DNA of 32,000 bases from Kineococcus radiotolerans SRS30216 = ATCC BAA-149 (GTDB taxonomy: Bacteria > Actinomycetota > Actinomycetes > Actinomycetales > Kineococcaceae): NCBI RefSeq assembly GCF_000017305.1, contig NC_009664.2:1950001-1982000 (forward strand), given 5' to 3'. Positions within the stretch are counted from its first letter, which is position 1, and every line of letters begins with the position of its first letter. Position numbers and translations under genes: made by a program. The notes below the pieces were generated by a model, which saw only the letters and a program-made list of their open reading frames with translations, was not told the origin of the DNA and made no database searches. Of this stretch, positions 1 through 29,130 are shown in pieces.

Positions 1-108
1 TTGACCCTGCTTTGGCGGCACCGCGCTACGGCTGGGCGGAAGGCCCGCTGAGGTGCGGATGGTCGTGCAGTAGCAGCTCGAACACGCCGGGCCCAGCGGG
101 CCGGGCTC

Positions 109-414
109 GTGGTGGCAACCGCCCTAGCCGGGTTCACCCTCGCCCTCGTCGCCTCCCCGCTGAAGCTGCCTCACTACCACGACGTATGGGTGCCGCCGCT
201 AATTATGGGGGCCGCCGCCGTCGCCCTGCACCGCCTCGTCACCGGATCGCGCGGGTCCCGCGTCGTCGCTGTCACGGCGGGCCTGGTGCTCCTGGCCCTC
301 GCCGGGCAGCAGGGGCTGAACGTCGCCACCACCGCTCCCGCGGATTGCCGGCTGGTGGGAGTCGAGCTGCGGCGGCTGCCGGTGGGGTCTCGTGGTGTCG
401 TGGGCGGACACTGA
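109..414 (+). CDS. hypothetical small membrane protein (about 3 predicted TM segments)
   Basis: GTG-start ORF with three helix-length hydrophobic stretches (VATALAGFTLALVASPL, VPPLIMGAAAVALHRLV, VVAVTAGLVLLALAG). Third codon positions are mostly G/C, unlike the overlapping Arg/Pro-rich frames. No family recognised. Confidence 0.3.
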   Translation: MVATALAGFTLALVASPLKLPHYHDVWVPPLIMGAAAVALHRLVTGSRGSRVVAVTAGLVLLALAGQQGLNVATTAPADCRLVGVELRRLPVGSRGVVGGH

Positions 415-708
415 GCGCCGCAGCGCTACGCCCCCGGCCTTGTCTACGTCGGGGGGCGGTTCCAGACTGCACGGCCGCGGCGCTGGTGGTGGACACTCGG
501 CACTGCCACCCATGGTGCAATAGCAAGGTGAAGCGCTTCCACTGAGCCTTAGCGACAGAATTGGCCTACGCCGACCCCTGATTTTGAAAGCCGCCGCCGT
601 CACGTCTTAGCAATATGGCTGTATATTTACATACCATCATTATCAGCACACTGCCCACGGCGGACTGCCGCCCCTCGTATTTCACCGCCTACACCGATCA
701 ATACGCCA

Positions 709-742
709 GAGGCCCCGACCCTCCAAGGAGAGCCGGGGCCTC
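709..742 (-). terminator. stem-loop about 40 nt downstream of the surface-protein stop codon
   Basis: GAGGCCCCG (709-717) pairs with CGGGGCCTC (734-742). An inner CTCC/GGAG pairing extends the stem. It lies just past the stop at 785-787 (minus strand). No clear U-tract. Confidence 0.45.
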
Positions 743-784
743 GAACTCACGTCACCCGGTCAATAGACCGGCCCTGACGATTGC

Positions 785-3700
785 TCAGCTAGCAGCAGGA
801 GGCGTGATCGCCGCAACCTGGCCGCTACCATCGACATCCGTCACGGTGCTGTTGGCAGTGCCGGGCAGGGCGGTCGCCGCCGCAAGGGCCCCCGTGCCAG
901 CAGCCGTCGCCGTCGTGAAGACGATGGTGTTGCCATTCACCGCGGCCGTGAATGCACCGGTGTCACCCGTAAAGGTGTTGGGACCGGTAATGGCTTCGAT
1001 CTCCGCTTCGCTGACCGCGCCTGCTCCCGTGATACCGGCCGCCAGGGTCGGAGCCGAGGAGAAGGTAAGCGTCAACTGGTCGCCGACATTGTTCCCGAAG
1101 CCCGCGGTTCCACCAGCAGTGATGGCGCCGGCAGTGATGAACGGAGCCACCGCGTAGCTCAAGGTCGCACTCGGCACGAATTCTGCGCTGGCGTCCCGGT
1201 AGGTGATGTACAGCGTGTCACCCGGGTTGAAGCCCGTCGTAGTGATCGTCAGCCCACCAGTGGCATCTTCGGTACCGGTACCGATGGCAACGCCGGCGGC
1301 GTTGTAGACGGTCACGATGTCACCATCCGCCTGCCCTGCGCCCGAACCGAGAGCCACAACTTCGGTGCTCGCATTGGCGTTAACCGCCGCGGTGGTCAGT
1401 ACAGTCGGGAGGGTTGTACCGACAACGGTGCGGTCCGTGCTGCGGGCCACGTTCCAGTCGCCGACCGCGTTACCAACGGTGGACTCGACGACGGCAACAA
1501 CAGCAGCGTCGGTGTTAATGACGCCGTTACCGCGCACGACCTCGGCCACCGGCGCGCCAGTGATGTCGACCGTGAGCACCGTGCTCTGAGCACCGCTGAC
1601 CGTGAACGTGGCGTTGGCGCCATTGGTCAGGGTCGCTTCGTCCCCATCCGTCTCGATGAGCCGGATAGTGTCCCCAGCCGCGACCGTGATCGCGCTGTTG
1701 AAGTTGAACACGAGGTTTTCGTCCGCGTCGAGAACGTTGTCAGACGTGGTCTCGTTGCTGCTGAGGCTGGCCGCGGTGCTGTAGGGGCTCGCCGGGGCAG
1801 CCACGGCCGTGGTGCTGGTGTCGATGCGGCCGCTGACCGCGGATTCTTCGCCATTCACAGTCTGGGTGACGAAGAGGTCATAGGCGGTGGAAGCCGTCAG
1901 ACCGCTGGCCGTGATCTGGAAGCCGGCCGTAGTGGCATCCTGGTCGGCCACCGTCTGACCGCGCTGCAGGTCGGTCGCGCGATCAAAGGCGTTGTTGTTG
2001 TCCGGCCCGCCGTAGACCGTGACCGTCGCACCCGCCACAAGACCGGTCAGGGTGAGGTTGACACCGGTCGCAGACGGGGTGACCGTCCCCACAGTCGGGG
2101 CCGCAGGGGCGAGGTCGTCGAGCAGGAAGGTCGACTGCAGCTCAGGAGTTGCGTTGTAGAAAGACCCCTGCGCAATAGCGTCGCCCGCGGAGAGCTGCGC
2201 TTCGAACTCGTCGGCGGTCACCTCTTCGGTCGCGTCAGCCGTCGTGTCGTTGTTGGCATTAACGAAGAACCGGTCGTTCGACTGGTACTCGTAGACCGCC
2301 CCAGCCGTCACTACGACGTTGGCCGTCTTGTCGACACTGGTGATGGCGGCGTCTGCAGAGACCACACCGGTGGTCGCTTCGGTGGGCAGGAACGTGATCT
2401 GTCCACCCAGCCCGAAGGGCTCGGTCGCAGGGGCGAAGGTACCTGCAGCGGTGGCGCTGGTTTCGAGGCGCGTGCTGGTTCCGCCCTGAGCGGCGGTCTT
2501 GCCCGGGCCGCCGTCGAGGTAGACGACCGGAACGATGTTCTCGGTGCCACCACCGTCCACGGTGAAGCTCAGGTTGCCGTTGACCGGCTGCGCAGTCGCG
2601 GTGTAAGCAGCGGGGGTCTGGGAGACCGCACTACCGTTCACAACGGTGATGGTCGCAAGACGCGAGCCCGGGTCGACCGAGAAGCCGCTGGGGGACGCTG
2701 CGTCAGCGCTGCTGAGGAAGGTCACCGACCCGTCAGCAGCCGTGCGGATGCTGTTTGCGTTGACAAGGGTGACACGGTACGTCGCCCCGGCCGTCAGGCC
2801 GGCAACCGAGTACGTACGGTCGTCAGTCGTGTCGTCGCTGGCGGGCACGACGAGGCTGACCGGAGTGGCCGGGCTGACAGCAACTCCCGGGACGCTGGAG
2901 CTGCCACCAGCAGACGTCCGAGCGGCATCAGTGATCGTCGTCGGCACGCTGTTAGCGTCACCGAAGACCCAGGCCTTGGTCAGCGTGGCGGCGTTCGCCT
3001 TGAGGTAGGCGTCCGTGCCGACACCCAGGCCGACAGTGCCCTCGGTCAGCAGGATCGGCGAGCCGGCGCGACCGGCGACCGGGCCGGCGGCCAGGGCGTC
3101 GATGCGGAAACCGTTGGCGAGCGCGGCACCGGTCTTGTTGAAGCCGAAGTCAGCCTCGAGGGCGATCGCGGCCGCGGTGGCGGTACGGTCCGAGCCCTGG
3201 ATGCGCTCGATATCGGTGACGGAGGCGAGGCCGTCGACCTGGGTGTAGACCGCGTCGGAGATGGCGTTCGCGTTGCCGAGGACGTAAACCTTGGTGACGC
3301 CGGCGGTGTTCAGCGCGGCGAGCGTCTCGGCGGGCAGCGAGTTCTGGTTGGTCAGCAGGACCGGGATCTTGTTCTTGAAGGCGGCCGGGCCGGCGGCGAG
3401 CGCGTCAGCGGCGACCTGGTTGGCGCCGTAGAGGTCGCCACGGGCCAGGAAGACCGTCTTCGGGGGGGTCACGCCGGCCTCGGTCATGACGTCGACCGCG
3501 GTCTGGAAGCGGTTCGGGCCGTCGATGCGCTGGCCGGTCTTGGTGCCGACGAGAGCGGAGTAGGTGCTGGCCGACACCGAGTTGGTGTCACCGAGGACGA
3601 TGACCGTCGTCGGGTTCAGCGAGGTGATGGCGGCGGCGGTCTGAGCCGGCACCGAGTCCTTCGCGGTCAGCAGGATCGGGGCGTCCTTGACGCCAGCCAG

Positions 3701-3964
3701 GTACGACGCGGCGAGGGCGTCGATGCCGGTGACCTCGCCGTTGGCGACGATGACGGTGGACGCGGAGGTCCAGCCGGCCAGCGCGGCCTTCGCGGCGGTG
3801 TCGTAACGGTCGACACCGGCGAGGCGGGAAGAAGCAGCAGAAGGGTCAAACCCAGGCGCAGCCTGAGCCGGGACCGCGGCAAGGCCGAGTCCGGTCAGAC
3901 CAACCAGAGCCGCGACGCCGGCCCCGATACCACGCCGGCGCAACCGGGAGGTTGCTGCGGTCAC
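785..3964 (-). CDS. secreted surface protein with three N-terminal CWB2 (cell wall binding repeat 2) modules and a long Thr/Ala/Val/Gly-rich beta-type C-terminal region; S-layer-like
   Basis: The ORF runs 785-3976. I place the start at GTG 3962-3964 because GGAGG (3969-3973) lies 4 nt upstream. Signal peptide: RLRRRGIGAGVAALVGLTGLGLAAVPAQA/APGF. Three repeats of the pattern R(L/I)xGxDR(Y/F)xTA...(S/A)PILLT...V(I/Y)VLG (RLAGVDRYDTAAK.., RIDGPNRFQTAVD.., RIQGSDRTATAAA..), roughly nt 2940-3830. No Cys and no LPXTG motif. The C-terminal ~700 aa look like tandem Ig/Fn3-like modules. Confidence 0.85.
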   Translation of the reverse strand: MTAATSRLRRRGIGAGVAALVGLTGLGLAAVPAQAAPGFDPSAASSRLAGVDRYDTAAKAALAGWTSASTVIVANGEVTGIDALAASYLAGVKDAPILLTAKDSVPAQTAAAITSLNPTTVIVLGDTNSVSASTYSALVGTKTGQRIDGPNRFQTAVDVMTEAGVTPPKTVFLARGDLYGANQVAADALAAGPAAFKNKIPVLLTNQNSLPAETLAALNTAGVTKVYVLGNANAISDAVYTQVDGLASVTDIERIQGSDRTATAAAIALEADFGFNKTGAALANGFRIDALAAGPVAGRAGSPILLTEGTVGLGVGTDAYLKANAATLTKAWVFGDANSVPTTITDAARTSAGGSSSVPGVAVSPATPVSLVVPASDDTTDDRTYSVAGLTAGATYRVTLVNANSIRTAADGSVTFLSSADAASPSGFSVDPGSRLATITVVNGSAVSQTPAAYTATAQPVNGNLSFTVDGGGTENIVPVVYLDGGPGKTAAQGGTSTRLETSATAAGTFAPATEPFGLGGQITFLPTEATTGVVSADAAITSVDKTANVVVTAGAVYEYQSNDRFFVNANNDTTADATEEVTADEFEAQLSAGDAIAQGSFYNATPELQSTFLLDDLAPAAPTVGTVTPSATGVNLTLTGLVAGATVTVYGGPDNNNAFDRATDLQRGQTVADQDATTAGFQITASGLTASTAYDLFVTQTVNGEESAVSGRIDTSTTAVAAPASPYSTAASLSSNETTSDNVLDADENLVFNFNSAITVAAGDTIRLIETDGDEATLTNGANATFTVSGAQSTVLTVDITGAPVAEVVRGNGVINTDAAVVAVVESTVGNAVGDWNVARSTDRTVVGTTLPTVLTTAAVNANASTEVVALGSGAGQADGDIVTVYNAAGVAIGTGTEDATGGLTITTTGFNPGDTLYITYRDASAEFVPSATLSYAVAPFITAGAITAGGTAGFGNNVGDQLTLTFSSAPTLAAGITGAGAVSEAEIEAITGPNTFTGDTGAFTAAVNGNTIVFTTATAAGTGALAAATALPGTANSTVTDVDGSGQVAAITPPAAS

Positions 3965-4058
3965 GATTGCCTCCAAGGCATGTGAAAGTGATGTTCCCCC
4001 CCACGAGGGGCCGGCTCGATTTCGAGCCTCGCCACCTCCCCAGACCGCTACGCAGCGG

Positions 4059-4420
4059 AGTGACTCGGTGACGGAACTGAACGTACACGAGAGTCACACC
4101 AGCAACACGGGGAGTAACAGAAGATCCAGAGCCCTCACGGCGTGTCGCAACAGTCTTACGGCCTGTGACCTGCGGTTTTGTGTCCGGCAGGTAAAAGTCA
4201 CAGTTTAGTAACGAGCGCCTCACCCGTCTCGCCCGCCCCAGACCACCCGTACGGAGTAGTCACATCAGGTGGGGTCACCACCCACGCACGGGCCATGACC
4301 CCGTGTGACTCGTGTGGGTGACTCCGACCGGACCCCTCCTCCCCGGTCGTCCGCAGCTCCCGTCGCCCTCTGTGACGAAGACGATCACGCGCCGGATCCC
4401 TGGCACACCGGGGGCGTCAC
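4059..4420. repeat. array of 11 GTGAC/GTCAC-core octamers (consensus kGTGACTc) in both orientations within the divergent intergenic region
   Basis: GTGAC at 4060, 4068, 4165, 4305, 4318 and 4372. GTCAC at 4093, 4197, 4259, 4274 and 4415. Six copies extend to TGTGAC. Includes the interrupted inverted repeat CTGTGACCTGC (4163-4173) / GCAGGTAAAAGTCACAG (4188-4204). Confidence 0.7.
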
Positions 4421-4467
4421 GGGATCGGCCCATCCAGCTCGTGCACCCGTGCACCGATGCCCCTGCC

Positions 4468-6696
4468 ATGACCGACGCACCACGGGCCTGGCGGGCGGGG
4501 CTCACAGCCACCGTGCTCGCCGCCACCGCCCCGCTGGCGCTGCTCGCCACCGCGCGCTCCGCGGGAGCGGCGCCGGTCACCGTGCTCATCGGCTTCGCGT
4601 GGCTGCTGAGCTGCGCCCTGGCCCCGCTCGTCGTGCGCTCCGCCACCCCCGCCGGCCTCACCCGGTACGCGCTCGCCGGGACGGTCTGGGGCGCGGGCAC
4701 CGTCGTCGCCGGCACCCTGCCCGCCGCCACGCTCGGCCCCCACCCCGTCCCCCACCTCGCCCACGCCGCCTCCCTGCTGGGCCTGGCCGCCATCGCCCTC
4801 CAGCAGCTGCACCACGCCCGCGACGGGCGCGACGAGTCCCCCCTGGGCGTCGAGACGGCCCTGCTCGCCGCGGTCCTCGCCGCCCTCGGCTGGGACTGGT
4901 CCGCGCGCGCCGGCCTCCACGGCGGCCCCTGGTGGGGCCCCTCGGCGGCCCTGGTCATCGTCGTCGCCAGCGTCGTCACCGCCGCCACCGTCGTCCTCGC
5001 CGTCGAGCACCCCGCGCTGCGGGTGCCCGGCGCCGGGCTCGCCGTCGTCGCCCTCGGCACCGAGCTCGCCGCCCTCACCTCCGCGCGCCACCCCCTCGTC
5101 GCCCTGGTGGCGATCGCCGCCGCCCTCGCCGGGGCCTACGTCCTCGTACTGGGCCAGCCGCGCGGCGGGATCGTCCGCCACGGCGGGGCCGCCGCCGCCG
5201 CCGGGGCCCGCCGCCTGCGGATCGCCACCGCCGTCCCCGCCGGGCTGCTCCTCGTCGACGTCGCGCTCTTCATCGGCGCCCCCCGCGCCGACGGGGCGAT
5301 GTTCGTCTTCTTCGCCGCCGTCGTCGTCGCCGCCGGGTTCCGGCAGGCCGCCACCGCCCGCGCCGTCGACCGCACCCACGACCGCCTCTCCTTCCAGGCC
5401 CTGCACGACCCCCTGACCGGGCTCGCCAACCGCGCCGCCCTCCAGTCCGCCCTCCACGAACCGGACCGCACCCAGTCGCTGGCCCTCATCGAGGTCGGCG
5501 GCCTCGACGACGTCACCGACGTCCTCGGCGTCACCGTCGGGGAGGACGTCCTGCGCGCCGCCGCCGCGAACCTGCGCGAGCACGTCCACGCCCTCGGCGG
5601 GACGACGTACCGGGTCCGCCACGACGAGTTCGCGGTGCTGCTGCCCGGGCCCCCCGAGGAGACCGTCCGGCACCTGCCCGGCGCGTTCGCCGCCGTCAGC
5701 GCCGCCCCCCTGCAGGTCCCCGGCGCGGGACGCTTCCCCGTCGACGCCGTCGCCGGTCTCGCCGCCGTCGCCTCCGGGCCCAGCACCGGCGGGGGCCGGG
5801 AGGCCATGACCCCGCTGCTGCACGCCGACCTCGCCCTGCGCGACGCCCGCCTCGGCGCCACCGGGTTCTCCGTCTACTCCGGCGAGGTCGCCAGCGCCCA
5901 CGCCCGCCGCCTGCTGCTGCGCGAGCGCCTCGCCTTCGCCGTCGCCGAGGGGACCGTCGACGTCCACTACCAGCCGATCGTGAACTTCACGACTGGCCGG
6001 GTGGAGAAGTTCGAGGCCCTCGCCCGCTGGGACGACGTCCAGCTCGGGCGCATCTCCCCCGTCGAGTTCATCGCCGTCGCCGAGGAGTCCAACCTCGTCG
6101 TCGCCCTCGGCGAGCACGTCCTGCGCCGCGCCGTGGCCAGCGCCCACGCCGCGGGGGTCTTCGCCGCGGGCGTGCGCCTCGCCGTCAACGTGTCCGTCGT
6201 GCAGCTGCAGGCGCCCGGCTTCGCCGACGTCGTCCGCGAGATCCTCGCCCAGCACGAGATCCCCCCGCACCTGCTGACCCTGGAGCTCACCGAGTCGGTG
6301 TTCCTCGACAGCGACTCCCCCGCCGAGCGCGTCGTCACCGAGCTCGCCGCCCTCGGCTGCCAGATCGCCATCGACGACTTCGGCACCGGCTACTCCGCCT
6401 TCGGCTACCTCGACCGGCTGCCCGTGCACGTCCTCAAGGTCGACCGCTCCCTCACCCAGTCCATGACCGGCGCGGGCAACGGCCTGTCCGTCGTCACCGC
6501 CGTCGTCGACCTCGCCAACCGCCTCGGGCTCACCGTCGTCGTCGAGGGCGTCGAGACCGACGAGGAGGCCGAGATCTGCCGCTCCATCCAGGCCGGTCTC
6601 GGGCAGGGCTGGCTGTACTCCGCGGCCGTCACCGCTGACCGGATCGGGGCGGAGCTGGCGCGGGAGTACCCGGTGTCGCCGGGGGCGGTGCGCTGA
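4468..6696 (+). CDS. polytopic membrane protein with degenerate GGDEF domain and intact EAL domain (predicted c-di-GMP phosphodiesterase)
   Basis: The ORF runs 4312-6696. The start is uncertain; ATG 4468 precedes the first TM segment (MTDAPRAWRAGLTATVLAATAPLALL). GGDEF-fold region: LHDPLTGLANR ... RVRHDEFAVLLPG, where RHDEF replaces GGDEF. EAL motifs are all present: FEALARW, AVNVS, LELTE, DDFGTGYS, LKVDRS, VVEGVETDEE, GQGWLYS. Confidence 0.85.
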   Translation: MTDAPRAWRAGLTATVLAATAPLALLATARSAGAAPVTVLIGFAWLLSCALAPLVVRSATPAGLTRYALAGTVWGAGTVVAGTLPAATLGPHPVPHLAHAASLLGLAAIALQQLHHARDGRDESPLGVETALLAAVLAALGWDWSARAGLHGGPWWGPSAALVIVVASVVTAATVVLAVEHPALRVPGAGLAVVALGTELAALTSARHPLVALVAIAAALAGAYVLVLGQPRGGIVRHGGAAAAAGARRLRIATAVPAGLLLVDVALFIGAPRADGAMFVFFAAVVVAAGFRQAATARAVDRTHDRLSFQALHDPLTGLANRAALQSALHEPDRTQSLALIEVGGLDDVTDVLGVTVGEDVLRAAAANLREHVHALGGTTYRVRHDEFAVLLPGPPEETVRHLPGAFAAVSAAPLQVPGAGRFPVDAVAGLAAVASGPSTGGGREAMTPLLHADLALRDARLGATGFSVYSGEVASAHARRLLLRERLAFAVAEGTVDVHYQPIVNFTTGRVEKFEALARWDDVQLGRISPVEFIAVAEESNLVVALGEHVLRRAVASAHAAGVFAAGVRLAVNVSVVQLQAPGFADVVREILAQHEIPPHLLTLELTESVFLDSDSPAERVVTELAALGCQIAIDDFGTGYSAFGYLDRLPVHVLKVDRSLTQSMTGAGNGLSVVTAVVDLANRLGLTVVVEGVETDEEAEICRSIQAGLGQGWLYSAAVTADRIGAELAREYPVSPGAVR

Positions 6697-6712
6697 GGAG
6701 ACCCGGCCGGCT

Positions 6713-6729
6713 GTAGCCGATCCGGCTAC
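6713..6729. promoter_or_regulatory. 7-bp inverted repeat GTAGCCG-atc-CGGCTAC immediately upstream of the antitoxin gene
   Basis: Perfect stem 6713-6719 / 6723-6729. It sits 17 nt after the upstream stop and 10 nt before the antitoxin GTG. It could be a TA autoregulatory operator or a small terminator hairpin. Confidence 0.3.
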
Positions 6730-6738
6730 CGTCGTTCC

Positions 6739-7065
6739 GTGAAGACCATCAGGGGGCGCGACCTGCGCAACGACTACGCCCGGATCCTGCGCGAGATCGA
6801 AGGCGGGGAGACCTTCACGGTGACCAGCGACGGGCGCCCCGTCGCGAGCATCACGCCCTACACCGCTCCCGACGGTCCTCAGACCTGGGTCCCCGCCGAC
6901 CGGGCCATCGGCGGACTGGCCCACCTCGGTCTCCCCGACGACTTCGCGGAGACCTTGCGCCGCGACCTCGACGAGCACTTCGTCACCGAGGTCGAGGACC
7001 CGCTGGAGCGGTGGGAAGCCCAGCAGGCCGAACTCGGGCAGGACGAGGAGCCGGGCAGCCGGTGA
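6739..7065 (+). CDS. type II antitoxin, Phd/YefM family
   Basis: The N-terminus MKTIRGRDLRNDYARILREIEGGETFTVTSDGRPVASITPY matches the Phd/YefM pattern (..REL/DLRxxxxxxLxxVexGExxxVTxxGRPVAxLxP). The stop overlaps the downstream PIN gene start by 4 nt (GTGA). Confidence 0.8.
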   Translation: MKTIRGRDLRNDYARILREIEGGETFTVTSDGRPVASITPYTAPDGPQTWVPADRAIGGLAHLGLPDDFAETLRRDLDEHFVTEVEDPLERWEAQQAELGQDEEPGSR

Positions 7066-7466
7066 CGAACCTGCTGCTCGACACCAACGCCGTCATCACG
7101 ATGGCGGCCGCACCCCCGGGCACCACCTTCGCCGGGATCCAGGACGGCGACGTGCTGGCCATCTCGACGGTGACGGAACTGGAGGTGCGGCTCGGCGTCG
7201 GGTTGCGACCGGGCAACGTGCACCTGCTGCAGACGCTGGCCTGGCTGACCCGGAACTACCGCGGCATCCCCACCGACGCTGCGGTGGTGGCGGCCTTCCC
7301 GGTGATCGTCGCCTCCGCCGTGGCCGCCGGGCAGAGCCCGGAGCGGCGCATCGCCGATCTGACCATCGCAGCGACGGCTCTCGCCCACGGCGCCACGTTG
7401 ATCACCGACGACAGGACGCTGCGCAACGCCCTCACCGGCGCGGTGGCGACGCGATCCCTGCAGTGA
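7062..7466 (+). CDS. vapC: PIN-domain ribonuclease toxin (VapC family)
   Basis: The start at GTG 7062 overlaps the antitoxin stop. The sequence VTNLLLDTNAVI.. carries the acidic PIN residues (LLDTN, TELEV, IADLTIAATA, LITDD). 134 aa, typical VapC size. Confidence 0.85.
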   Translation: MTNLLLDTNAVITMAAAPPGTTFAGIQDGDVLAISTVTELEVRLGVGLRPGNVHLLQTLAWLTRNYRGIPTDAAVVAAFPVIVASAVAAGQSPERRIADLTIAATALAHGATLITDDRTLRNALTGAVATRSLQ

Positions 7467-7476
7467 AACCGGTCGC

Positions 7477-7532
7477 GGAGGGGAACGTCCGGCGGCTCGA
7501 CGGGCCCCGGAGGCCGCCGGACGTTCCCCTCC
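7477..7532. terminator. bidirectional hairpin with a perfect 20-bp stem between convergent genes
   Basis: GGAGGGGAACGTCCGGCGGC (7477-7496) pairs perfectly with GCCGCCGGACGTTCCCCTCC (7513-7532), with a 16-nt loop. It lies between the vapC stop (7466) and the CSD gene stop (7540). Confidence 0.6.
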
Positions 7533-7539
7533 CGCCGGG

Positions 7540-8019
7540 TCAGCGTCCGTCGACGAGGAACCCGCGGTCGAAGCCGTAGTCGGTCAGCGCGTCGCGCAGC
7601 TCCCGGACCTGCCGGCCGCTGAGGTCGTCGACCGCGCTCAGCAGGAGCTCGGTGACCTCGCGGCGGAACTGCTCCACCGGCAGGGCCCCGCCGCGCGCGG
7701 CGGGACGCCCGCCCGCACCGGCCCGGTCCCGGCCCGCGTCACGACTGGAGTCACGGCCTGCATCACGACTGGAGTCGCGGCTGGGCCCGCGGCCCGCCGA
7801 GCCCAGCGGCCGGACGTCGGTGGCCTTGTAGCCGCGGTCACCCTGGTCCAGGGTGAACTGCACCGACGCGCCCTCCAGGTCCTCGGCCTCCAGGTCGACG
7901 ACGTCCTTCACGTGGAAGAAGACGTTCTCCGGGCAGTCCGGGCTGGTGATGAAACCGAACCCGCGCCCGTCGTCGAACGACCGGACCTTGCCCTTGGCCA
8001 GCGAAGCCACCAGTACCAC
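7540..8019 (-). CDS. cold-shock-domain protein with Arg/Asp/Ser-rich repeat linker and C-terminal helical extension
   Basis: N-terminal CSD with RNP1-like RGFGFI and RNP2-like VFFHV (KGKVRSFDDGRGFGFITSPDCPENVFFHVKDV...). This is followed by SRDSSRDAGRDSSRDAGRD and about 50 further residues. At 159 aa it is more than twice the length of a classical Csp. Confidence 0.85.
   Translation of the reverse strand: MVLVASLAKGKVRSFDDGRGFGFITSPDCPENVFFHVKDVVDLEAEDLEGASVQFTLDQGDRGYKATDVRPLGSAGRGPSRDSSRDAGRDSSRDAGRDRAGAGGRPAARGGALPVEQFRREVTELLLSAVDDLSGRQVRELRDALTDYGFDRGFLVDGR
7739..7786. repeat. tandem duplication, 24 bp x 2, inside the CSD gene
   Basis: TCACGACTGGAGTCACGGCCTGCA (7739-7762) is followed by TCACGACTGGAGTCGCGGCTGGGC (7763-7786). 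It encodes the SRDAGRDS repeat. Confidence 0.8.
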
Positions 8020-8147
8020 TCACTCTCGATCGACTCACGGCCCGCCGCCGCGCGAGGGGCCGGGGGACATCCTCCCCGAGGACGGGACGCGCCGGCGCCA
8101 CCACCGCGGCCCCCGTGGTCCGGCGGCGGCCCGGCGGCGGCGCTGCG

Positions 8148-8486
8148 TCAGCCGGACGGCGGTGCGTAGCGCCAGCCCCACCCGTGGGCGTCGCGGTGGA
8201 CGGTGACCGGGCCCGAGCGCACCGGGGTCCCCGCGGGCTCGTCGTGCAGGGCCTGAACGCCCTCGCGGGCCGCGGCCGCCACCAGCGCGCACCCGCCGGC
8301 GTCGACGACGGCGTGGGCGTGGTCGCGGTCGTCGCAGTCGCGGTCCTCGTCGACGGCGCACACGCTGCGGCAGGGCGCCCCGGCCTCGGCGCGGCAGGTG
8401 ATCCGGCCCGCGACGCGCCCGCCGTCGGCGTGCCACCAGGTGACCTCGTGCGAGGGGGCGGGGGACGGGGCGGTGGGGGCGGTCAT
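8148..8486 (-). CDS. hypothetical small Cys-rich protein (112 aa)
   Basis: The start at ATG 8484-8486 is preceded by GGAGAG 7 nt upstream. Nearly all third codon positions are G/C. Cys pattern C31-X7-C39-X3-C43-X7-C51-X14-C66, with a WWH motif and a C-terminal GWGWRY. The longer 183-aa ORF extension to 8699 is low-complexity and lacks an RBS. Confidence 0.6.
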   Translation of the reverse strand: MTAPTAPSPAPSHEVTWWHADGGRVAGRITCRAEAGAPCRSVCAVDEDRDCDDRDHAHAVVDAGGCALVAAAAREGVQALHDEPAGTPVRSGPVTVHRDAHGWGWRYAPPSG

Positions 8487-8701
8487 CGGTCGGCTCTCCT
8501 GAACCTCGTGCGGGTCGTCCGGGGCCATCGTCCCCCCGGCGCCGGGCCCGCGCCCGGCCCGCCCGCCGCCCCGGTCCGGCGAGGGCCCGAGGGTGGTCCG
8601 GGGGGTTCCGTCCGCGCCACCACCCCCCTCGCGCCGGGGCCGGTCTTCTGGAAGTGTTCTCGCCATCCAGTGACGCTCCGTGGTCGGAGGGAGACTCAAA
8701 C

Positions 8702-10897
8702 GTGCTTGCCCTCGGGGTGCTGCGCGTCGTCCTCCTCCTCGCCGCCTGGTACGTCCTGCGCGGGCAGGCGCGCGCCGCGGAGGCCGGGAGCCGCATCTGG
8801 AACAGCCACGCCGCCGCCGTCGGCGTCCTCGCCGCGGGGGCGCTCGCGAGCCTCGTCCCCACCCTCGTCGGGCTCCCCGCGCAGTGGGCGGCGGACGTCT
8901 TCTCCGCCACCACGCTGCCCGCCTGCCTGCTCGTCTACCGCGGGATGGCCACCTACCACCGCCTCCACTCCGCCACCGGAGAGGTCGCGGACTGGCTGGT
9001 GGCCCTCAGCTGCGTGCTCACGGCCACCGCCGCCGCGAACCTCCTGCTGCAGACCGGCGTCCTGCACAGTCCCCTCACCGGCCCGGCGCTGCAGCACCGA
9101 CTGCTGACCGTCGCCTCCGTCACCGTCGTGCTCGCGGTCCTGCTGCGGGTCGTGCGCACCAGCCGGGCCGTCGACGCCCGCACCACCCTGCTCCTCACCG
9201 GGTCGCTGCTGAGCGTGCTGCTGGCCCACGTGTGGGTGACCCTGGCCGTCGTCAGCCCGCTCGCCCGCACGGGCCTCTCCTTCACCTGGGTCGCCTTCGC
9301 CGGCGCCCTCGCCCACACCGTCGTCCGCCGGCGCAACGACACGACCCGCCCCCTCACCACCTCGCCGCTGTCCACGACCACCACCGCCTTCGCCACCCTG
9401 CTCGCCGGGGTCGGCGTCATCACCGCCACCACCCTGCAACCGGGCGACGGGCGGCTGCGCTGGTCGGTGGTCTGGGCCGTGCTGGCCGTGCTGCCCGTGG
9501 CCGGCCGGATCCGGCAGCTCGTGCGGGGCCTGGTCCACCACGACCGCGTCCAGCGCGAGGCCGCCACCGACGAGCTCACCGGGCTGCCCAACCGGCGCGC
9601 CTTCACCGCCGCGCTGGAGACCGCCACCCGCGAGCGGCGGCCCGCGACCGTGCTGCTCATCGACCTCGACCGCTTCAAGGAGGTCAACGACCGCTACGGG
9701 CACGCCACCGGTGACCGGCTGCTGCAGCACGTCAGCCGCGCCTTCACCGGCGTCCTGCCCGCCGGGGCCCTGCTCGCCCGCCTCGGCGGCGACGAGTTCG
9801 CCGTCCTGCTCACCGCCGCCCCCCACGCCGGCGACCCGGACCTCTCCCTGCGGACCGCCCACCACGTGGGCACCGCCGCCGAGCGCGACCCCCTCGACGG
9901 GGTGCACCAGGTCGTCGCCAGCGTCGGCGTCGTCACCACCGACGGCCTCCAGCACCTGCAGGGGGAGGACCTGCTGCGCCGCGCCGACGCCGCGATGTAC
10001 GTCGCCAAGGCCGGCGGGGGCGGGGTCGGCGTCCACGACGACGCCGCCGCGCGGCGGTGGCGCCGGCACGAGGCCCTCGCCCTCGGCCTCCTCGACACCT
10101 TCTCCCCCGCCGCGGGCGCCACCACCCGCGAGGAGTTCGAGGTCCACTACGAGCCGCAGGTCACCCGCGAGGGCTGGACCGCCGGGGTCCGGGCGTCGCT
10201 GCGGTGGTCCCACCCCGTGCTGGGGGTGCTGGACCCGCCCGAGTTCCTCGGGGTCGCCGAGGAGCTGCGGCTGCTGCCGGAGCTGACGACGCACCTGGTG
10301 ACCCGCGGGTGCGCCGACCTCGCGCGGTGGCGGGCCGCCGGCCACGACGTGCGGCTGTCCTTCCCCGTCGACCCCCTCCAGCTCACCGACCCGCGGCTGC
10401 TGGACCTGCTGGACGCCGTCGTCGCCGCCGGGACCGACCCCCGGCTGCTCGTGGTGGGGACCACCGCGGCGGTCTTCGCCGACGACCCCGAGAGCGCCAC
10501 CCGCACCTGCCGCGAGATCGACGCCCGCGGCTGCGGCCTGTCCATCGACGACTTCGGGACGGGCTGGCCCTCCCTGGCCCACCTGGCGGCCCTGCCCGTC
10601 GGGGAGGTCACCGTCGACGCCGCGCTGACCGCCCGCCTCCTCCTCGACCCGCGCGTCGCGACCGTCGTCGCCGCCGCGGTCGGGTTCGCCCACCACCTCG
10701 GCCTGCGCGTCGTCGCCGACGGGGTCGCCGACGCGACGACCCTGGACCTGCTGCACGGGATGGGCTGCGACCTCACCCGGGGGCCCCTGCACGGCCGGCC
10801 CGTCCCCGCGGGCGGGCTGCACCTGACCCTGCCGATCCCCGTCCCGCGCCCCACCCCGCACCCCGTCCCGTCGGCGCTGGACCCCACCCGCACCTGA
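8702..10897 (+). CDS. polytopic membrane protein with intact GGDEF domain and degenerate EAL domain
   Basis: The ORF runs 8654-10897. GTG 8702 is preferred as the start because GGAGGGAG (8687-8694) lies 7 nt upstream. GGDEF motifs: TDELTGLPNRR, DLDRFKEVNDRYGH, ARLGGDEFAVLL, RADAAMYVAKAGGG. EAL-fold region with lost catalytic motifs: ASL for EAL, SFPVD for xVNxS, VVGTT for ELTE, VTVD for KxD, ADGVAD for EGVE. Only DDFGTG is retained. Confidence 0.85.
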   Translation: MLALGVLRVVLLLAAWYVLRGQARAAEAGSRIWNSHAAAVGVLAAGALASLVPTLVGLPAQWAADVFSATTLPACLLVYRGMATYHRLHSATGEVADWLVALSCVLTATAAANLLLQTGVLHSPLTGPALQHRLLTVASVTVVLAVLLRVVRTSRAVDARTTLLLTGSLLSVLLAHVWVTLAVVSPLARTGLSFTWVAFAGALAHTVVRRRNDTTRPLTTSPLSTTTTAFATLLAGVGVITATTLQPGDGRLRWSVVWAVLAVLPVAGRIRQLVRGLVHHDRVQREAATDELTGLPNRRAFTAALETATRERRPATVLLIDLDRFKEVNDRYGHATGDRLLQHVSRAFTGVLPAGALLARLGGDEFAVLLTAAPHAGDPDLSLRTAHHVGTAAERDPLDGVHQVVASVGVVTTDGLQHLQGEDLLRRADAAMYVAKAGGGGVGVHDDAAARRWRRHEALALGLLDTFSPAAGATTREEFEVHYEPQVTREGWTAGVRASLRWSHPVLGVLDPPEFLGVAEELRLLPELTTHLVTRGCADLARWRAAGHDVRLSFPVDPLQLTDPRLLDLLDAVVAAGTDPRLLVVGTTAAVFADDPESATRTCREIDARGCGLSIDDFGTGWPSLAHLAALPVGEVTVDAALTARLLLDPRVATVVAAAVGFAHHLGLRVVADGVADATTLDLLHGMGCDLTRGPLHGRPVPAGGLHLTLPIPVPRPTPHPVPSALDPTRT

Positions 10898-10961
10898 CGC
10901 GCCCGCAGCGGACGGGGGTCGGGGGCTACGGATCGGCCCCGGACGTTCCGATGCACCGGAG

Positions 10962-13343
10962 GTGAACGCACGGTCCCTCCGCCGGCCCGGCGCGCCCGCG
11001 CCGGTGCGGAGCGTGCTCTTCGCCGCGCTGTTCCTCGTCGCCGTGCACCTGGGCCGGCTCAGCGTCGTCGACGGCGCCGGGCCCGCCGTCGTGTGGCCCG
11101 CCGCCGGGGTGGCCGCGGCCTGGTTCAGCGTCCAGCGCGCCACCAGCACCCGCTGGTCCGACCGCTGGCTCGACGTGCTCCTCATCACCGCCGTCACCGT
11201 CGCGGTGAACGCGGCCACCGGCGCCGGGGCCGTCCTCGTCGTGGGGTTCGTCGTCGCGAACCTGCTGCAGGCGGAGCTGTTCGCGGCCCTGCGCCGGCGC
11301 TGGTTCACCCCCTCCGTGGCGCTGCTGGGCACCCGCCAGCTCGCGGTGCTGCTGGCCGCCACCACCGCGGCCTGCGCGGTCGGCACCGCCGTCGGCACCG
11401 TCGTCGTCGCGCTGGACGGGTCACCGCCGGACTGGACGTCGGTCGCGATCTGGTTCACCCGCAACTGGGCCGGGATCCTGCTCGTCACCCCCGTCCTGCT
11501 GCGGCTGGTCCTCCGCGTCCCCGTCCGGTGGCCGGTGGGGACCGCCGCCACGGCGGAGCTGACCGCCGCCCTCGCCGTCTCCGTCCTCGCCTACGTCGGG
11601 GTGTTCTGGGCCGTCGACGGGCTGCCGCTGGCGTTCCTGCCGCTGGCGGCCACGATCTGGCTGGCCCTGCGCTTCGACACCACGATCGTCGTCGTCGCCG
11701 GTCTCGTCGTCGCCACCACCACGGTGCTGGGCACCCTCGCCGGGCACGGGCCGTTCGCCGCCGTCCCCGACGACCTGACGCGGATCCTCGTCGTGCAGGT
11801 CCACGTGGGCTTCCTCGCCGCCCTCGGCCTCGCCCTCGCCGTCGGCCGCGACGAGCGGGCCTCCCTGGTGGCGCGGCTCTCCGCCGCGAGCGCCGAGGCC
11901 CAGGCCGCGCGCGCGGAGGCCGAGCACCGGGAGCGGTTCGCGGAGGCGGTCCTGGCCGGTGTCGGCACCGGGATCGTCGTGTCCGACCCGCAGGGGCGCC
12001 TCGTCACGTTCAACGACACCGCCCGCGCCTGGCACGGCCTCGACGCCGACGCCGACCTGGACCCCGTCCAGCACGCGGGGACCTACCACCTCTTCGCCGC
12101 CGACGGCTCCACCCCGCTGACCCACGCCGAGATCCCCCTGGTGCGCACGCTGCACGAGGGCCGGGTCAGCGCCGCCGAGATGGTCATCGCCCGCCCGGGC
12201 CGGCCCCCCGTCCCCGTCGTGTGCAGCGGGCGGACCGTGGTCGGCGCGGACGGGGAGGTCCTGGGGGCGGTCGTGGCGATGCACGACCTCACCGACACCC
12301 GGGCCCGGGAGGCGGACCTGGCCGCGGCGAACGCGCGCCTGGCCGCGCACGTGGCCCAGGTGGAGCGGCTGGCGGCGGCCTCGCGGGCCGTCCTGACCGC
12401 GGAGGACCCGCGGCGGGCGGTCGTGGCGGCGGCGGTGGAGATCGCCGGGGCCGAGGCCGCCTACCTCCTGCAGCCCGACGGGCAGGGCCGGCTGGTGTCG
12501 ACCTCGACGACCGGGCTGCCCGAGGACCTCGTCCTGAGCCTGGACCTGGACGGGCCGACGACCCTGGTGGTCGGCAGCTACCTGGACGGGGAGGCGCTGT
12601 TCGTCCCCGACGTCGCGACGCACCCGCGGGCCGACCCCCGCCTCATCGAGGTCTGCGGGACGGTCTCGGGGGCCTGGCAGCCCGTCGTGGACGCCGGCGG
12701 GCAGGTCGTGGGGGTGCTCGGCATCATCTGGCGCGAGCCGGTGGCGGTGCTGGAGCCCACGACGGCCGCGGTGCTGCAGGGCCTGGCCGCGGAGGCGGCG
12801 CACGCCTTCGCCCGCGCGGACCTGCTGGCCCGGCTGGCCCGCGACGCCCAGCACGACGCGCTCACCGGGCTGGTCAACCGCCGCCGCTGGGACGCCCTGG
12901 CCCGCCGGGAGATCCGCCGGGCGGGGCGCCACCGGACGCCGCTGACGTTCGCGCTGCTGGACCTGGACCACTTCAAGCTCTTCAACGACACCCGCGGCCA
13001 CCTCGCCGGGGACGAGCTGCTGCGGGGGTTCTCCCTGGCGGCCGGGGCGCAGCTGCGCGAGCTGGACACGCTCTCGCGGTGGGGGGGCGAGGAGTTCGCG
13101 CTGCTGCTGCCCGGCTGCACCGCCGCCGACGCGGTGGACGTGGTGGACCGGATCCGCGCCGTCGTCCCCGAGGGGCAGACCTGCACCGCGGGGATCTGCG
13201 AGTGGCTGCCGGGGACGGAGGCCGCGGAGGTCATGGCCGCCGCCGACCGGGCCCTGTACCGGGGCAAGGAGGTGCGCGACACGACCGTCGTCGGGTCCGT
13301 CCTGGACGTGCCCGCCCCCGCCGCCGGGGTCCCGGAGCGCTGA
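10962..13343 (+). CDS. MASE1-PAS-GAF-GGDEF diguanylate cyclase
   Basis: N-terminal membrane domain with a MASE1-like signature (AVHLGRLSVV..PAVVWPAAGVAAAWF). PAS (GIVVSDPQGRLVTFNDTARAWHG...). GAF (AYLLQPDGQGRLVSTS...GVLGIIWREP). GGDEF (DALTGLVNRR, DLDHFKLFNDTRGH, SRWGGEEFALLL) with an RxxD I-site (RELD) 5 residues upstream. The exact start is uncertain; alternatives are GTG 11004 and 11013. Confidence 0.85.
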   Translation: MNARSLRRPGAPAPVRSVLFAALFLVAVHLGRLSVVDGAGPAVVWPAAGVAAAWFSVQRATSTRWSDRWLDVLLITAVTVAVNAATGAGAVLVVGFVVANLLQAELFAALRRRWFTPSVALLGTRQLAVLLAATTAACAVGTAVGTVVVALDGSPPDWTSVAIWFTRNWAGILLVTPVLLRLVLRVPVRWPVGTAATAELTAALAVSVLAYVGVFWAVDGLPLAFLPLAATIWLALRFDTTIVVVAGLVVATTTVLGTLAGHGPFAAVPDDLTRILVVQVHVGFLAALGLALAVGRDERASLVARLSAASAEAQAARAEAEHRERFAEAVLAGVGTGIVVSDPQGRLVTFNDTARAWHGLDADADLDPVQHAGTYHLFAADGSTPLTHAEIPLVRTLHEGRVSAAEMVIARPGRPPVPVVCSGRTVVGADGEVLGAVVAMHDLTDTRAREADLAAANARLAAHVAQVERLAAASRAVLTAEDPRRAVVAAAVEIAGAEAAYLLQPDGQGRLVSTSTTGLPEDLVLSLDLDGPTTLVVGSYLDGEALFVPDVATHPRADPRLIEVCGTVSGAWQPVVDAGGQVVGVLGIIWREPVAVLEPTTAAVLQGLAAEAAHAFARADLLARLARDAQHDALTGLVNRRRWDALARREIRRAGRHRTPLTFALLDLDHFKLFNDTRGHLAGDELLRGFSLAAGAQLRELDTLSRWGGEEFALLLPGCTAADAVDVVDRIRAVVPEGQTCTAGICEWLPGTEAAEVMAAADRALYRGKEVRDTTVVGSVLDVPAPAAGVPER

Positions 13344-27031: not shown

Positions 27032-28657
27032 CTAGCGCGGGGCCGGGACGGGACCGCGCCGGGCCCGCTTCACCTGGTACATCCGGGCGTCGGCGGCCGC
27101 GAGCAGCGCCTCGACGAGGTCGGGCACCGGGTCCGCGTCCCCCCCGCCGGGCAGGGCCGCGAGCAGTTCGCGCGGGTCCTCCCGCACGGCGCCGATGCTC
27201 GCGCTGGCCCGCAGCGGCCCCTCGCCCAGCGGGAAGGGCCGGGCCACCGCGGCGCGCAGCCGCTCGACGACCTCGGCGGCCTCGACGTGCGGGTCGGTGA
27301 CGAGCACCGCGAACTCGTCCCCGCCCCAGCGGGCCGCGCAGTCGGCCTCGCGCACCGCCCCGCGCAGCCGGCCCGCCACCTGCCGCAGCAGCTCGTCGCC
27401 CGCGGCGTGGCCGGAGGTGTCGTTGACGGCCTTGAAGCCGTCGAGGTCGACGAAGGCGACGACCACCGGGGACCCCGTGACCAGCGACGCGCGGACGGCA
27501 TCCCCGAGGCGCTCGGAGAACCGGCGGCGGTTCTCCAGGCCGGTCAGCGGGTCGACGTGGGCGAGGTGGTCGAGCTGCGCGCGCTGGTCCTCGGCCACCG
27601 CCAGCAGCCGCCGGTGGTCGTCGAGGGCGAGGAACTGGCGGGCCATGGCCAGGACGACCATCGCCAGGACGGTCACGAGGACGAAGCGGTCGGTGGCGGT
27701 CCACAGCCGCACGGCTCCCGCGGTCGTCGCGGGCAGCAGGGCGAAGTAGGGGACGAGCCACCCCACCGACCCCGGCGCCGGCGGGCGCGGGGAGTCGCGG
27801 GTGGTGCGGCGGTAGCGGGCGGCCACCGCGAAGAGCCCGAACGCGGTCATCCAGCAGAAGTCGGCGAACCCGCCGGTCTCGAAGCCGTGCTCGCCGAGGA
27901 CGCCGTAGAAGTAGCTCCCGTCGGCGCAGGCCAGCGCCGCGGCGGCGGCCATCACCAGGACGCCGGGCACGGTCAGGCCCCCGCGCAGCACCGAGACGAT
28001 CGTCACCGTGAGGAACACGACGTCCAGGACGGGGTAGGTGAGGGGGATGACGAGGGCCAGGGGGCGGTCGTCGGCGCGGGCGACGGCCTCCCCCAGCCAC
28101 AGCACCCACACGACGGTGAGCAGCGACAGGCCGAGCAGGGCCCCGTCGAGGACGGCGCGCACCCCGGTGTGGGAGCGGACCCGCCCGCGCAGGTGCACCG
28201 CCGAGGACGCCACCAGCAGGAGCGCGAAGGCCAGGAAGGGCCCGTCGCTGCCGGTGGTGGCGCTCGTCGTCACCCCGAGGACGTCGTCGGCGGTGTAGAG
28301 GGCCTGGCCGGCGGCGAAGCAGGCGCACCCGGCGGCGAGCAGCAGCTGCGCGGTCCGCGCGGCACCGCGCGGGAGGACCCGCAGCCCCGACCGGGCCAGG
28401 CTGGCCGCGGCCACGAGGGCGGCGGTGCCCTCGGCGACGCCGATGAAGGTCAGGGCCGGGTCGCTGCCGCGGCCCAGGACGTGCTGGACGGCGCCCACCG
28501 CGAGCAGGGCCAGGACGAGCACGCCGAGGTCCGCGCCGAGGCGCCACGCAGCGCCCGGCACGTCCCGACCGTTGCTCGAGCGGTTCCGCACGTCTCCCCA
28601 TCGGCTCCTGCGCTGCGCGTCTGGACGAGTGTCACCCGATGGGCGCGCGCGCGTCAC
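27032..28657 (-). CDS. polytopic membrane diguanylate cyclase (about 9 TM + GGDEF)
   Basis: VDPLTGLENRR, DLDGFKAVNDTSGH, ARWGGDEFAVLV with an RxxD I-site (READ) 5 residues upstream, and ADARMYQVKR. The N-terminal codons have weak coding bias, so the true start may be GTG 28591 or 28561. Confidence 0.85.
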   Translation of the reverse strand: MTRARPSGDTRPDAQRRSRWGDVRNRSSNGRDVPGAAWRLGADLGVLVLALLAVGAVQHVLGRGSDPALTFIGVAEGTAALVAAASLARSGLRVLPRGAARTAQLLLAAGCACFAAGQALYTADDVLGVTTSATTGSDGPFLAFALLLVASSAVHLRGRVRSHTGVRAVLDGALLGLSLLTVVWVLWLGEAVARADDRPLALVIPLTYPVLDVVFLTVTIVSVLRGGLTVPGVLVMAAAAALACADGSYFYGVLGEHGFETGGFADFCWMTAFGLFAVAARYRRTTRDSPRPPAPGSVGWLVPYFALLPATTAGAVRLWTATDRFVLVTVLAMVVLAMARQFLALDDHRRLLAVAEDQRAQLDHLAHVDPLTGLENRRRFSERLGDAVRASLVTGSPVVVAFVDLDGFKAVNDTSGHAAGDELLRQVAGRLRGAVREADCAARWGGDEFAVLVTDPHVEAAEVVERLRAAVARPFPLGEGPLRASASIGAVREDPRELLAALPGGGDADPVPDLVEALLAAADARMYQVKRARRGPVPAPR

Positions 28658-28681
28658 CCCCGGCCGCGGCGGGGCCGGGCC

Positions 28682-29059
28682 TCAGAGCCCGTCGGCGGGA
28701 CGCATCAGGCGCAGCAGCGGGGCGGTGCTCAGCCGCTGCCGGGCGAGGGCCGCCCCGAGGAGGAGGACGACCACGCCGAGCAGGACCAGCGGCCACGCGT
28801 TCAGGACGAGGCCCACCACGGCCAGCGCCAGGGCCACGAGGAGGGGCAGCACGACGGGCATCCGGTTGTACCAGCGCGGTTGCAGCACGGCCGCGGCGTA
28901 CCACCAGGCGACGGCGGCGACGCGCTCGTCGGGGTGGCGCCGGCCCTGCCGGGCCAGGGCCAGGACGTCGTGGCGGTCCTCCGGGGGCAGCGCCTGGAAG
29001 GCGCGGACGGCGGTGGCCCGCCGCTGGGGGGGCAGTTCGGGCCCCACGACCGCGCTCAT
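28682..29059 (-). CDS. hypothetical membrane protein (125 aa, two C-terminal TM segments)
   Basis: ATG start, strongly G/C-biased third positions. Soluble N-terminal ~60 aa (..LPPEDRHDVLALARQGRRHPDERVAAVAWWY..) followed by MPVVLPLLVALALAVVGLVL and LVLLGVVVLLLGAAL. It ends 24 nt upstream of the GGDEF gene. Confidence 0.55.
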   Translation of the reverse strand: MSAVVGPELPPQRRATAVRAFQALPPEDRHDVLALARQGRRHPDERVAAVAWWYAAAVLQPRWYNRMPVVLPLLVALALAVVGLVLNAWPLVLLGVVVLLLGAALARQRLSTAPLLRLMRPADGL

Positions 29060-29081
29060 CGTCCTGCCCCGCGTCCCGCTG

Positions 29082-29130
29082 CGTGTCCGGCCTCGTGCAC
29101 GTCCCCATCGTAGGTGCGCGGCCGGACACG
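29082..29130. promoter_or_regulatory. 11-bp perfect inverted repeat (27-bp spacer) in the divergent promoter region
   Basis: CGTGTCCGGCC (29082-29092) is the exact reverse complement of GGCCGGACACG (29120-29130). The adjacent CGTGCAC / GTGCGCG extends the pairing with one mismatch. Confidence 0.4.

Follow-up and report, generated by a model that had tools for sequence, protein, structure and literature searches.

A genus-wide conserved array of GTNAC boxes upstream of a CWB2 surface-protein gene in Kineococcus

What is a dense run of GTGAC and GTCAC words, in both orientations, doing between two divergent genes: marking double-stranded DNA for a regulator, or pairing within a long mRNA leader? 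The question is raised by a 491-bp gap in the window analysed here (32,000 nt of Kineococcus radiotolerans SRS30216, contig NC_009664.2), which separates a gene for a cell wall-binding (CWB2) surface protein from a gene for a GGDEF-EAL protein. An initial annotation, made from the sequence alone, had offered both readings and described the two flanking genes, and they are as it described them:

785–3964, minus strand: surface-protein gene (1059 aa), with a signal peptide, three N-terminal CWB2 (PF04122) repeats and a variable Thr/Ala-rich C-terminal part.
4468–6696, plus strand: gene for a membrane GGDEF-EAL protein (742 aa; ATG start) with a degenerate GGDEF (RHDEF).

The words form a real, genus-wide conserved cis-regulatory array, well defined but of an ordinary kind, a new instance of a familiar type of feature. 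On balance, the gap is probably the control region of the surface gene, with a core promoter, a folded leader and upstream boxes that would be bound by one regulator. The operator reading is the better of the two originally offered, and the folded leader appears confined to the part of the gap next to the surface gene.

Density and conservation of the boxes

GTGAC occurs in the gap at 4060, 4068, 4165, 4305, 4318 and 4372, and GTCAC at 4093, 4197, 4259, 4274 and 4416. Ten of these coordinates had been given exactly in the initial annotation and the last was one base off (4415); its octamers, and the presence of TGTGAC in 6 of the 11 sites, are as stated there. Inclusion of GTTAC/GTAAC raises the 11 GTSAC sites to 13 GTNAC sites. 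GTSAC has a background of 3.4 per kb in the window, and the densest 400-bp stretch of the whole 32 kb is the gap array (11 GTSAC, against a mean of 1.4), with no other stretch coming close. All six copies of TGTGAC/GTCACA in the window lie inside the gap. Among 2000 dinucleotide-preserving shuffles of the 445 nt upstream of the surface gene, none reached the observed number of GTSAC (10, against 2.7±1.5, maximum 9) or of TGTGAC/GTCACA (6, against 0.56±0.74, maximum 4), so that the enrichment first claimed from base composition stands against both dinucleotide-matched sequence and the window background. In 155 kb of other DNA from Kineococcus the density of TGTGAC/GTCACA is 0.13 per kb; in the element it is 8.4 per kb. 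Strong over-representation in the region is limited to k-mers that are sub-words of CTGTGACTC (TGTGACT, 4 occurrences where 0.08 are expected), and the region's sole repeated word is TGTGACTC. The box word is read as asymmetric, (T)GTGAC(T)(C), and its two orientations are about equally frequent. A hand calculation of helical phasing of all boxes relative to the box in the core promoter gave no overall phase preference.

A genome scan with the surface protein returned no locus; orthologues were gathered via protein homologues, their contigs and an exact 22-mer scan, giving a comparison set of 16 orthologous loci (the window and 15 further Kineococcus genomes or bins); conservation counts for single boxes cover 13 or 15 species, as stated with each. 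Homologues of the surface protein are Kineococcus cell wall-binding repeat proteins, 40–71% identical over part of their length, and the 445 nt upstream are 59–80% identical across relatives (96% against the K. radiotolerans relative). Against this background the boxes hold position (±1–2 nt) and orientation across ~15 Kineococcus species; in the most distant species the orientation pattern is retained and positions are slightly shifted. Box cores have 0.91 identity compared with 0.63 elsewhere in the upstream part (permutation p<1e-4), and identity runs 0.82 / 0.95, 0.95, 0.87, 0.90, 0.88 / 0.60 by position across the box. The cores are thus conservation islands, or phylogenetic footprints, in the aligned sequences, and GTNAC position and orientation, for which conservation in orthologous regions had been proposed as a check, are retained across the genus. 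A coding function of the gap is excluded by one-base indels between species. Larger insertions (0–100 bp) are confined to the stretch between about -440 (positions are relative to the surface-gene start codon) and a block close to the EAL gene. Outside these loci, a metagenome scan with a 19-mer returned chance matches in unrelated coding regions only, and a plasmid collection, which did not include the K. radiotolerans plasmid, gave no match to the element.

Predicted core promoter and folded leader

The part of the gap nearest the surface gene resolves into a core promoter and a predicted transcript leader, which holds two of the sites:

4080–4110, minus strand: core promoter block CCGTGTTGCTGGTGTGACTCTCGTGTACGTT, 31 nt, nearly invariant (TGTGAC-N7-TACGTT) in 16 loci.
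4114–4118, minus strand: GTTAC at -154, 21 bp upstream of the core box, within the near-invariant block GATCTTCYGTTACTCCCC.
3965–4073, minus strand: predicted 5′ leader of the surface-gene mRNA, ~109 nt, from per-species folds and covariation.
4060–4072, plus strand: sites 4060 and 4068 (-100 and -108 from the start codon), inside leader helix 1.

The core block carries a candidate -10, TACGTT (4080–4085), and 7 bp upstream of it a box, TGTGACTC (4092–4099; site 4093, -133). Its central 22-mer, TGCTGGTGTGACTCTCGTGTAC, is identical in 16/16 loci, even in three where the remaining upstream sequence is only ~60% identical; in the rest of the 31-mer one species has GTGGTG instead of GTGTTG. The block is single-copy per locus examined. 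At -154, GTNAC is retained in 8/13 species. TACGTT fits TANNNT, the -10 pattern of actinobacteria. There is no recognisable -35, TTGCTG lying only 14 nt upstream of TACGTT, and a scan for consensus sigma-70 promoters (TTGACA, 16–18 nt, TATAAT) and terminators found none.

A second CWB2 gene of K. xinjiangensis has a paralogous promoter copy, TGTnGCnGGTGTGAC-AGCG-GTGTACGTT, in which the 4-nt spacer is changed; homology reaches up to about -150 and no further. In both paralogues the base of a 5′ hairpin lies 7 nt after TACGTT. Together with the fit of TACGTT and the paralogue itself, this places the transcription start most likely near 4072–4073 (minus strand). At the paralogous locus (L008, 6040–6200) the sequence reads GGTGTGAC-AGCG-GTGTACGTT, followed by homologous leader hairpins and GGAGGCATCGTG, and upstream boxes are missing.

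Minimum-energy folding, done sequence by sequence and starting at the seventh base past TACGTT, gave 15 orthologues and one paralogue the same leader architecture. Helix 1 is a long 5′-terminal hairpin (4030–4073) whose base is the first or second nucleotide, a second hairpin is formed by GGCUCGAAAUCGAGCC, and a third by GGCCCCUCGUGGGGGG (GGCCCC...GGGGGG), after which comes the ribosome-binding site (GGAGG, 3971–3975; GTG start at 3964). In helix 1, GUCACC pairs with GGUGGC ~40 nt downstream; in K. xinjiangensis and K. glutinatus GUCAC is changed to GUCGC together with its partner (GGUGG to GGCGG), and GUC to GCC at -100 converts a U.G pair to C-G. Among species, pairs run U-A, U.G, C-G in the second hairpin and G-C, G.U, A-U in an inner stem. 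A covariance-model alignment of the leader has double-sided changes in 9 pairs, compared with 3.5±1.4 in shuffles; 0/500 shuffles reach the observed value on any measure and slid controls give 1–3, although these counts lean towards structure because the alignment was fitted to it. Comparative analysis shows the proximal ~109 nt of the predicted transcript to be a folded, covarying RNA leader. Sites 4060 and 4068 pair with the GGUGGC and GGC partners and not with other boxes, and as parts of covarying helix 1 they are under constraint at the RNA level. The structured-leader reading of the initial annotation thus survives for this proximal part, which holds 4060 and 4068, and fails for the rest of the gap.

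mRNAs of S-layer and other abundant surface proteins, such as those of Lactobacillus slpA and E. coli ompA, have stabilising 5′ leaders. The Kineococcus leader resembles these in its length (~100 nt), in a 5′ end paired in a terminal hairpin and in having more hairpins before the ribosome-binding site; unlike them in sequence, it has no relationship to either. Pairing of the leader 5′ end with the ribosome-binding site was also considered, and was superseded by the 5′-terminal hairpin present in every single-sequence fold.

Conservation continues into the start of the gene. Codons 1–20 (3905–3964) are protein-identical in 13 species, with third positions 93% conserved (compared with ~71% deeper in the gene), and form two hairpins on folding, GCAACCUCCCGGUUGC and GCCGGC...GCCGGC; synonymous conservation and hairpins together suggest RNA-level constraint at the coding start.

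The upstream boxes, their reading and rival explanations

Upstream of the core promoter block, eight further GTNAC boxes (-205, -237, -248, -299, -314, -345, -358 and -412) make up a module with the following parts:

4124–4404, no strand assigned: upstream regulatory module (-160 to -440, ~280 bp); eight GTNAC boxes, positions and orientations fixed.
4165–4169, plus strand: box -205, GCAGGTCACAG on the surface-gene strand, retained in 12/13 species.
4197–4212, minus strand: boxes -248 and -237, GTTAC-N6-GT(G/A)AC, present in 13/15 species.
4259–4278, minus strand: boxes -299 (TGTGACTA) and -314 (GGTGACCC), retained in 10/13 and 12/13 species.
4305–4322, plus strand: boxes -345 and -358, opposite orientation, retained in 6/13 and 8/13 species.
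4372–4376, plus strand: box -412, CGTCACAG on the surface-gene strand, retained in 11/13 species.

Box -205 and the core box (-133) are exactly 72 bp apart in 15/15 species, despite two variable patches between them. Boxes -299, -314, -345 and -358 form a roughly symmetric quartet with its centre near 4293, and box -412 is accompanied by a conserved GCGAC 10 bp downstream (GTCACA-N4-GCGAC in 12/15 species). The paralogous promoter lacks the whole module.

A long structured leader would require most of the gap to be transcribed, with GUGAC and GUCAC copies pairing, perhaps in more than one alternative fold, so as to regulate translation or the stability of the mRNA. The copies are complementary to one another (both complementarities listed in the initial annotation are present in the sequence), some of these pairs are used by the window's own fold, the proximal 109 nt are truly structured and synonymous sites of the first 20 codons show unusual conservation, as expected of RNA-level constraint near the start. 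However, the box-box helices, including both of those proposed in the initial annotation, lack covariation (0.081, against 0.080 in shuffles): they have one double-sided change, 238/500 shuffles score as high, and 87% of their cells are paired because the words themselves are conserved. At least five independent core changes are uncompensated. GTCAC to GCCAC at -345 and G to C at -358, each in four species, break a pair without compensation, as does GTGAC to GTCAC at -314 in K. rhizosphaerae, and at -237, where the central base can be G, A or T, the proposed partner -205 does not change to match. The structure conservation index is 0 to 0.29 upstream of -170 compared with 0.4 to 0.86 downstream, the consensus fold of the whole region has no covariation support (covariation term +0.19), and the whole-region fold of the window is no more stable than shuffles (z=-0.68). 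The paralogous promoter-plus-leader unit starts at -150 without the module, and a start 7 nt after TACGTT would fall at the base of the 5′ hairpin. In favour of a longer leader, a hairpin at -262 to -245 has a few changes that are compensatory or give G.U pairs, but we regard such a leader as improbable. Occurrence in both orientations, conserved sequence and unconserved pairing instead indicate sites on double-stranded DNA, and the upstream boxes are most likely such sites for a regulator. The operator reading is accordingly best supported for the core-promoter box and the eight upstream boxes, and does not extend to 4060 and 4068, in the leader, or to 4416, in the promoter of the EAL gene. 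An inverted repeat (4086–4112/4299–4316) was rejected as a helix or inversion site, as its upstream arm varies freely while its downstream arm is invariant.

If the boxes are DNA sites, they might still be -35-type elements for an alternative sigma factor of the extracytoplasmic function (ECF) type, in several tandem promoters as at some S-layer genes. GTCACA resembles the -35 of ECF41, whose signature is TGTCACA-n16-CGTC (PMC3426412); at -205 two conserved segments, GGTCAC(A/G)G and then CGACACGCCG, flank a spacer that varies in sequence but not in length, a promoter-like pattern, and the core promoter is without a normal -35. Although the -35 word TGTCACA overlaps the box, no conserved CGTC follows at 16±1 nt: strict TGTCACA-N15-17-CGTC is found in no species, no GTCAC-N15-17-CGTC is conserved, and the only ECF41-like match is a loose GTCAC(A/G)-N16-CGAC at -205. 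Half of the boxes face away from the surface gene without a -10 partner, the core box is only 7 bp from the -10, and the sole reported ECF41 targets are neighbouring COE genes (PMC3426412), all of which makes this explanation unlikely. Boxes as -35 hexamers of ordinary promoters were likewise rejected, since inspection by eye found no TANNNT 16–18 nt downstream of any box. An element responsive to cyclic dimeric GMP (c-di-GMP), either a BldD-type operator or a riboswitch, would couple the surface layer to the EAL enzyme. The surface gene and a GGDEF-EAL gene are divergent in 9/10 loci where the neighbour is seen (the exception being K. rhizosphaerae), the window is rich in c-di-GMP genes and GTNAC contains the BldD half-sites TNAC and GTNA. 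Nevertheless, the BldD palindrome TNAC-N5-GTNA is sporadic, occurring in fewer than half of species with none conserved (a match at -344 recurs in five), and searches with Rfam 15 (including c-di-GMP-I/II and ydaO) gave nothing at gathering score in the whole window and, in 3700–4800, only two chance-level matches (E of 2 and 6), with no riboswitch match even at E<=10. As the element and the EAL promoter each stay with their own gene where the genes are separated (below), the second-messenger control of the cell surface suggested in the initial annotation loses its footing; a c-di-GMP link is unsupported beyond neighbourhood and such an element is very unlikely. Least credible is a methylation-sensitive or recombinational switch, based on GTSAC (which we take to be the Tsp45I specificity) as a restriction-modification-type site, or on inverted copies as targets of promoter inversion. 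Its attractions are a palindromic core in both orientations and the existence of phase-variable CWB2 proteins in Clostridioides. With its flanks, however, the box is asymmetric (TGTGACTC), in the rest of the window GTSAC is not avoided and not remarkable (3.4 per kb), one orientation is seen in 16/16 assemblies, and the longest inverted repeats are 14 to 18 nt, imperfect and unconserved in the upstream arm.

The published half-sites closest to the box are those of winged-helix response regulators. The MtrA half-site is c-G-T/A-n-A-C/T-c, in a direct repeat with an 11-nt period (PMC6265350), the Streptomyces site being (G/T)T(G/A)ACC-N5-GT(G/T)ACN (PMC5650626) and the M. tuberculosis box GTCACAgcg (PMC4285127). 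AfsQ1 and GlnR sites have GTnAC-n6-GTnAC (GlnR/AfsQ1 variant gTnAc-n6-GaAAc), and regulators share or compete for such sites (PMC6988585). The half-site word of MtrA (nGTnACc, GTCACAgcg-like) is common to the array, six of the 13 GTNAC sites (6/11 GTSAC sites) being GTCACA, but the base after AC is mostly T and not C. The 11-nt-period direct repeat does not run across the array: 4197–4212 is the sole canonical tandem of this period, there is no other GTNAC-N6/N5-GTNAC, only a weaker GTCACA-N4-GCGAC at -412, and the Kineococcus sites are otherwise mostly isolated half-sites or 8/13/15/31/72 bp apart, in both orientations. The arrangement that defines MtrA/GlnR-type sites is thus lacking for the array as a whole. 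Similarly, AfsQ1/GlnR boxes of Streptomyces have an identical 5-nt core, and GTTAC-N6-GT(G/A)AC at -248/-237 is an exact match to their pattern, the only one; the other sites do not fit, the one tandem lies amid isolated sites, and the known AfsQ1/GlnR targets are nitrogen, phosphate and antibiotic genes. Several MtrA boxes may be spread over one region, as in M. tuberculosis oriC, and MtrA regulons include cell-division and cell-wall metabolism genes, with MtrAB conserved across the phylum (PMC6265350, PMC5650626, PMC4285127, PMC5845573). Because the box equals the published half-site, a response regulator of the MtrA/GlnR/AfsQ1 group is the best candidate for the binding protein, although we propose it tentatively and with low confidence. 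The CRP/GlxR site TGTGA-N6-TCACA had no match in any of 15 sequences.

The reading we favour, a control region for the surface-layer gene read by a single sequence-specific protein, would work as follows. The core promoter, with -10 TACGTT, no usable -35 and one TGTGACTC box 7 bp upstream, would function poorly alone, and its activity would be set by a regulator occupying the core box and the eight upstream boxes cooperatively over ~300 bp. Lack of a -35 argues for activation, while repression would also fit a box located between the -10 and the position of a -35. The transcript would begin with its 5′ end paired in a long terminal hairpin, presumably of the kind that stabilises abundant mRNAs. 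Arrays of several operators are familiar from the omega repressor, with WATCACW heptads in either orientation, and from auxiliary operators of the Lac/Gal/Deo type. The Kineococcus array is like these in having a short asymmetric word in both orientations, with one copy in the core promoter and others at fixed distances upstream; unlike them, its boxes are non-contiguous and span ~300 bp. Several observations weigh against this model. The start, the -10 and the lack of further upstream promoters are inferred, and if there were any start upstream of -260, parts of the module would be in the transcript. In the hairpin at -262 to -245 three or four disruptive changes accompany the few compensatory ones, which are A-U in one species and G.U in the window lineage. 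Apart from the tandem, box spacings (8, 13, 15, 31–32, 51 and 72 bp) are not those expected of simple sites for OmpR-type dimers. Besides its boxes the module has other conserved islands (GCGACG, CCGTGCG, CGACACGCCG and AAAACCGCAGG), so more than one factor is likely.

A bolder version, possible but doubtful, is a genus-wide regulatory system of a new kind, in which a dedicated regulator (or an unusual sigma factor or activator) would read TGTGACTC both at eight phased sites upstream and in the atypical promoter, which has no -35 and a box 7 bp from its -10, and would form an enhancer-like complex of ~300 bp that may respond to c-di-GMP or partner switching, given the signalling genes nearby. 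To our knowledge, almost nothing is known of how CWB2-anchored surface layers are controlled in high-G+C Gram-positive bacteria, and nothing useful was found in the published literature on Kineococcus surface-layer expression. The region offers a precise map, with a probable start site, a folded leader, a promoter word common to two paralogues and nine exactly placed boxes. Should MtrA be the protein that binds them, the surface layer would become part of the cell-envelope regulon under the one two-component system conserved across Actinobacteria; if the protein is another, the array would be a ready-made high-affinity target for a new regulator.

The EAL promoter and neighbouring genes

The last site of the gap lies in a separate conserved block in front of the EAL gene:

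4413–4459, plus strand: EAL-gene upstream block, CGTCACG-N5-TCGGCCCATCCAGC-N15-CCGAWS, ending 8 nt before the ATG; holds site 4416.

This block is bipartite (CCATCC, 18 variable nt, CCGA(A/T), with CGTCACG in front) and has the appearance of an ECF-type promoter whose leader would be very short; it may resemble the consensus of M. tuberculosis SigK. The block stays at a constant distance from the EAL start despite the insertions of 0–100 bp towards the surface-gene element. In K. rhizosphaerae (L022, 1386–2457) a PIN-domain toxin and helix-turn-helix antitoxin-like pair is inserted between the EAL gene and the element, a natural experiment that separates the two promoters: the element remains with the surface gene, and the EAL gene retains its own 85-nt upstream block. 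Since the block travels with the EAL gene, site 4416 is part of the EAL promoter rather than of the array. The variable spacer of this promoter contains, at 4440–4455, a perfect tandem, CGTGCACC CGTGCACC, seen only in the window and the K. radiotolerans lineage.

In the EAL protein the EAL and DDFGTGYS motifs are intact, and only the GGDEF is degenerate. The surface protein matches PF04122 over three stretches (E=9e-44). Signalling genes cluster in the window at 4468–13343 and 27032–30629, encoding two GGDEF-EAL proteins, one MASE1-PAS-GGDEF protein and one further GGDEF protein, as well as a PAS-GAF-SpoIIE phosphatase, an anti-sigma-type kinase (HATPase_c_2), a PAS histidine kinase and a WYL-domain regulator. 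G+C content is 65–70% over the surface gene and the sequence upstream of it (1–4400), with a third-position G+C of 0.81, compared with 73–80% and 0.9–0.98 in the rest of the window; this could reflect compositional constraint or an old acquisition.

In the K. radiotolerans assembly GCA_014191015.1 (L001, 3860–4000) the annotated surface-gene start is 141 nt downstream of the conserved GGAGG-N6-GTG, the start used by all other species, and the deposited protein (855 aa) therefore probably lacks its signal peptide. Contig JBPBQU010000042.1 (L012), from a bin labelled Janthinobacterium lividum, carries a Kineococcus-type locus (core promoter, leader and CWB2 gene) and is probably mis-binned.

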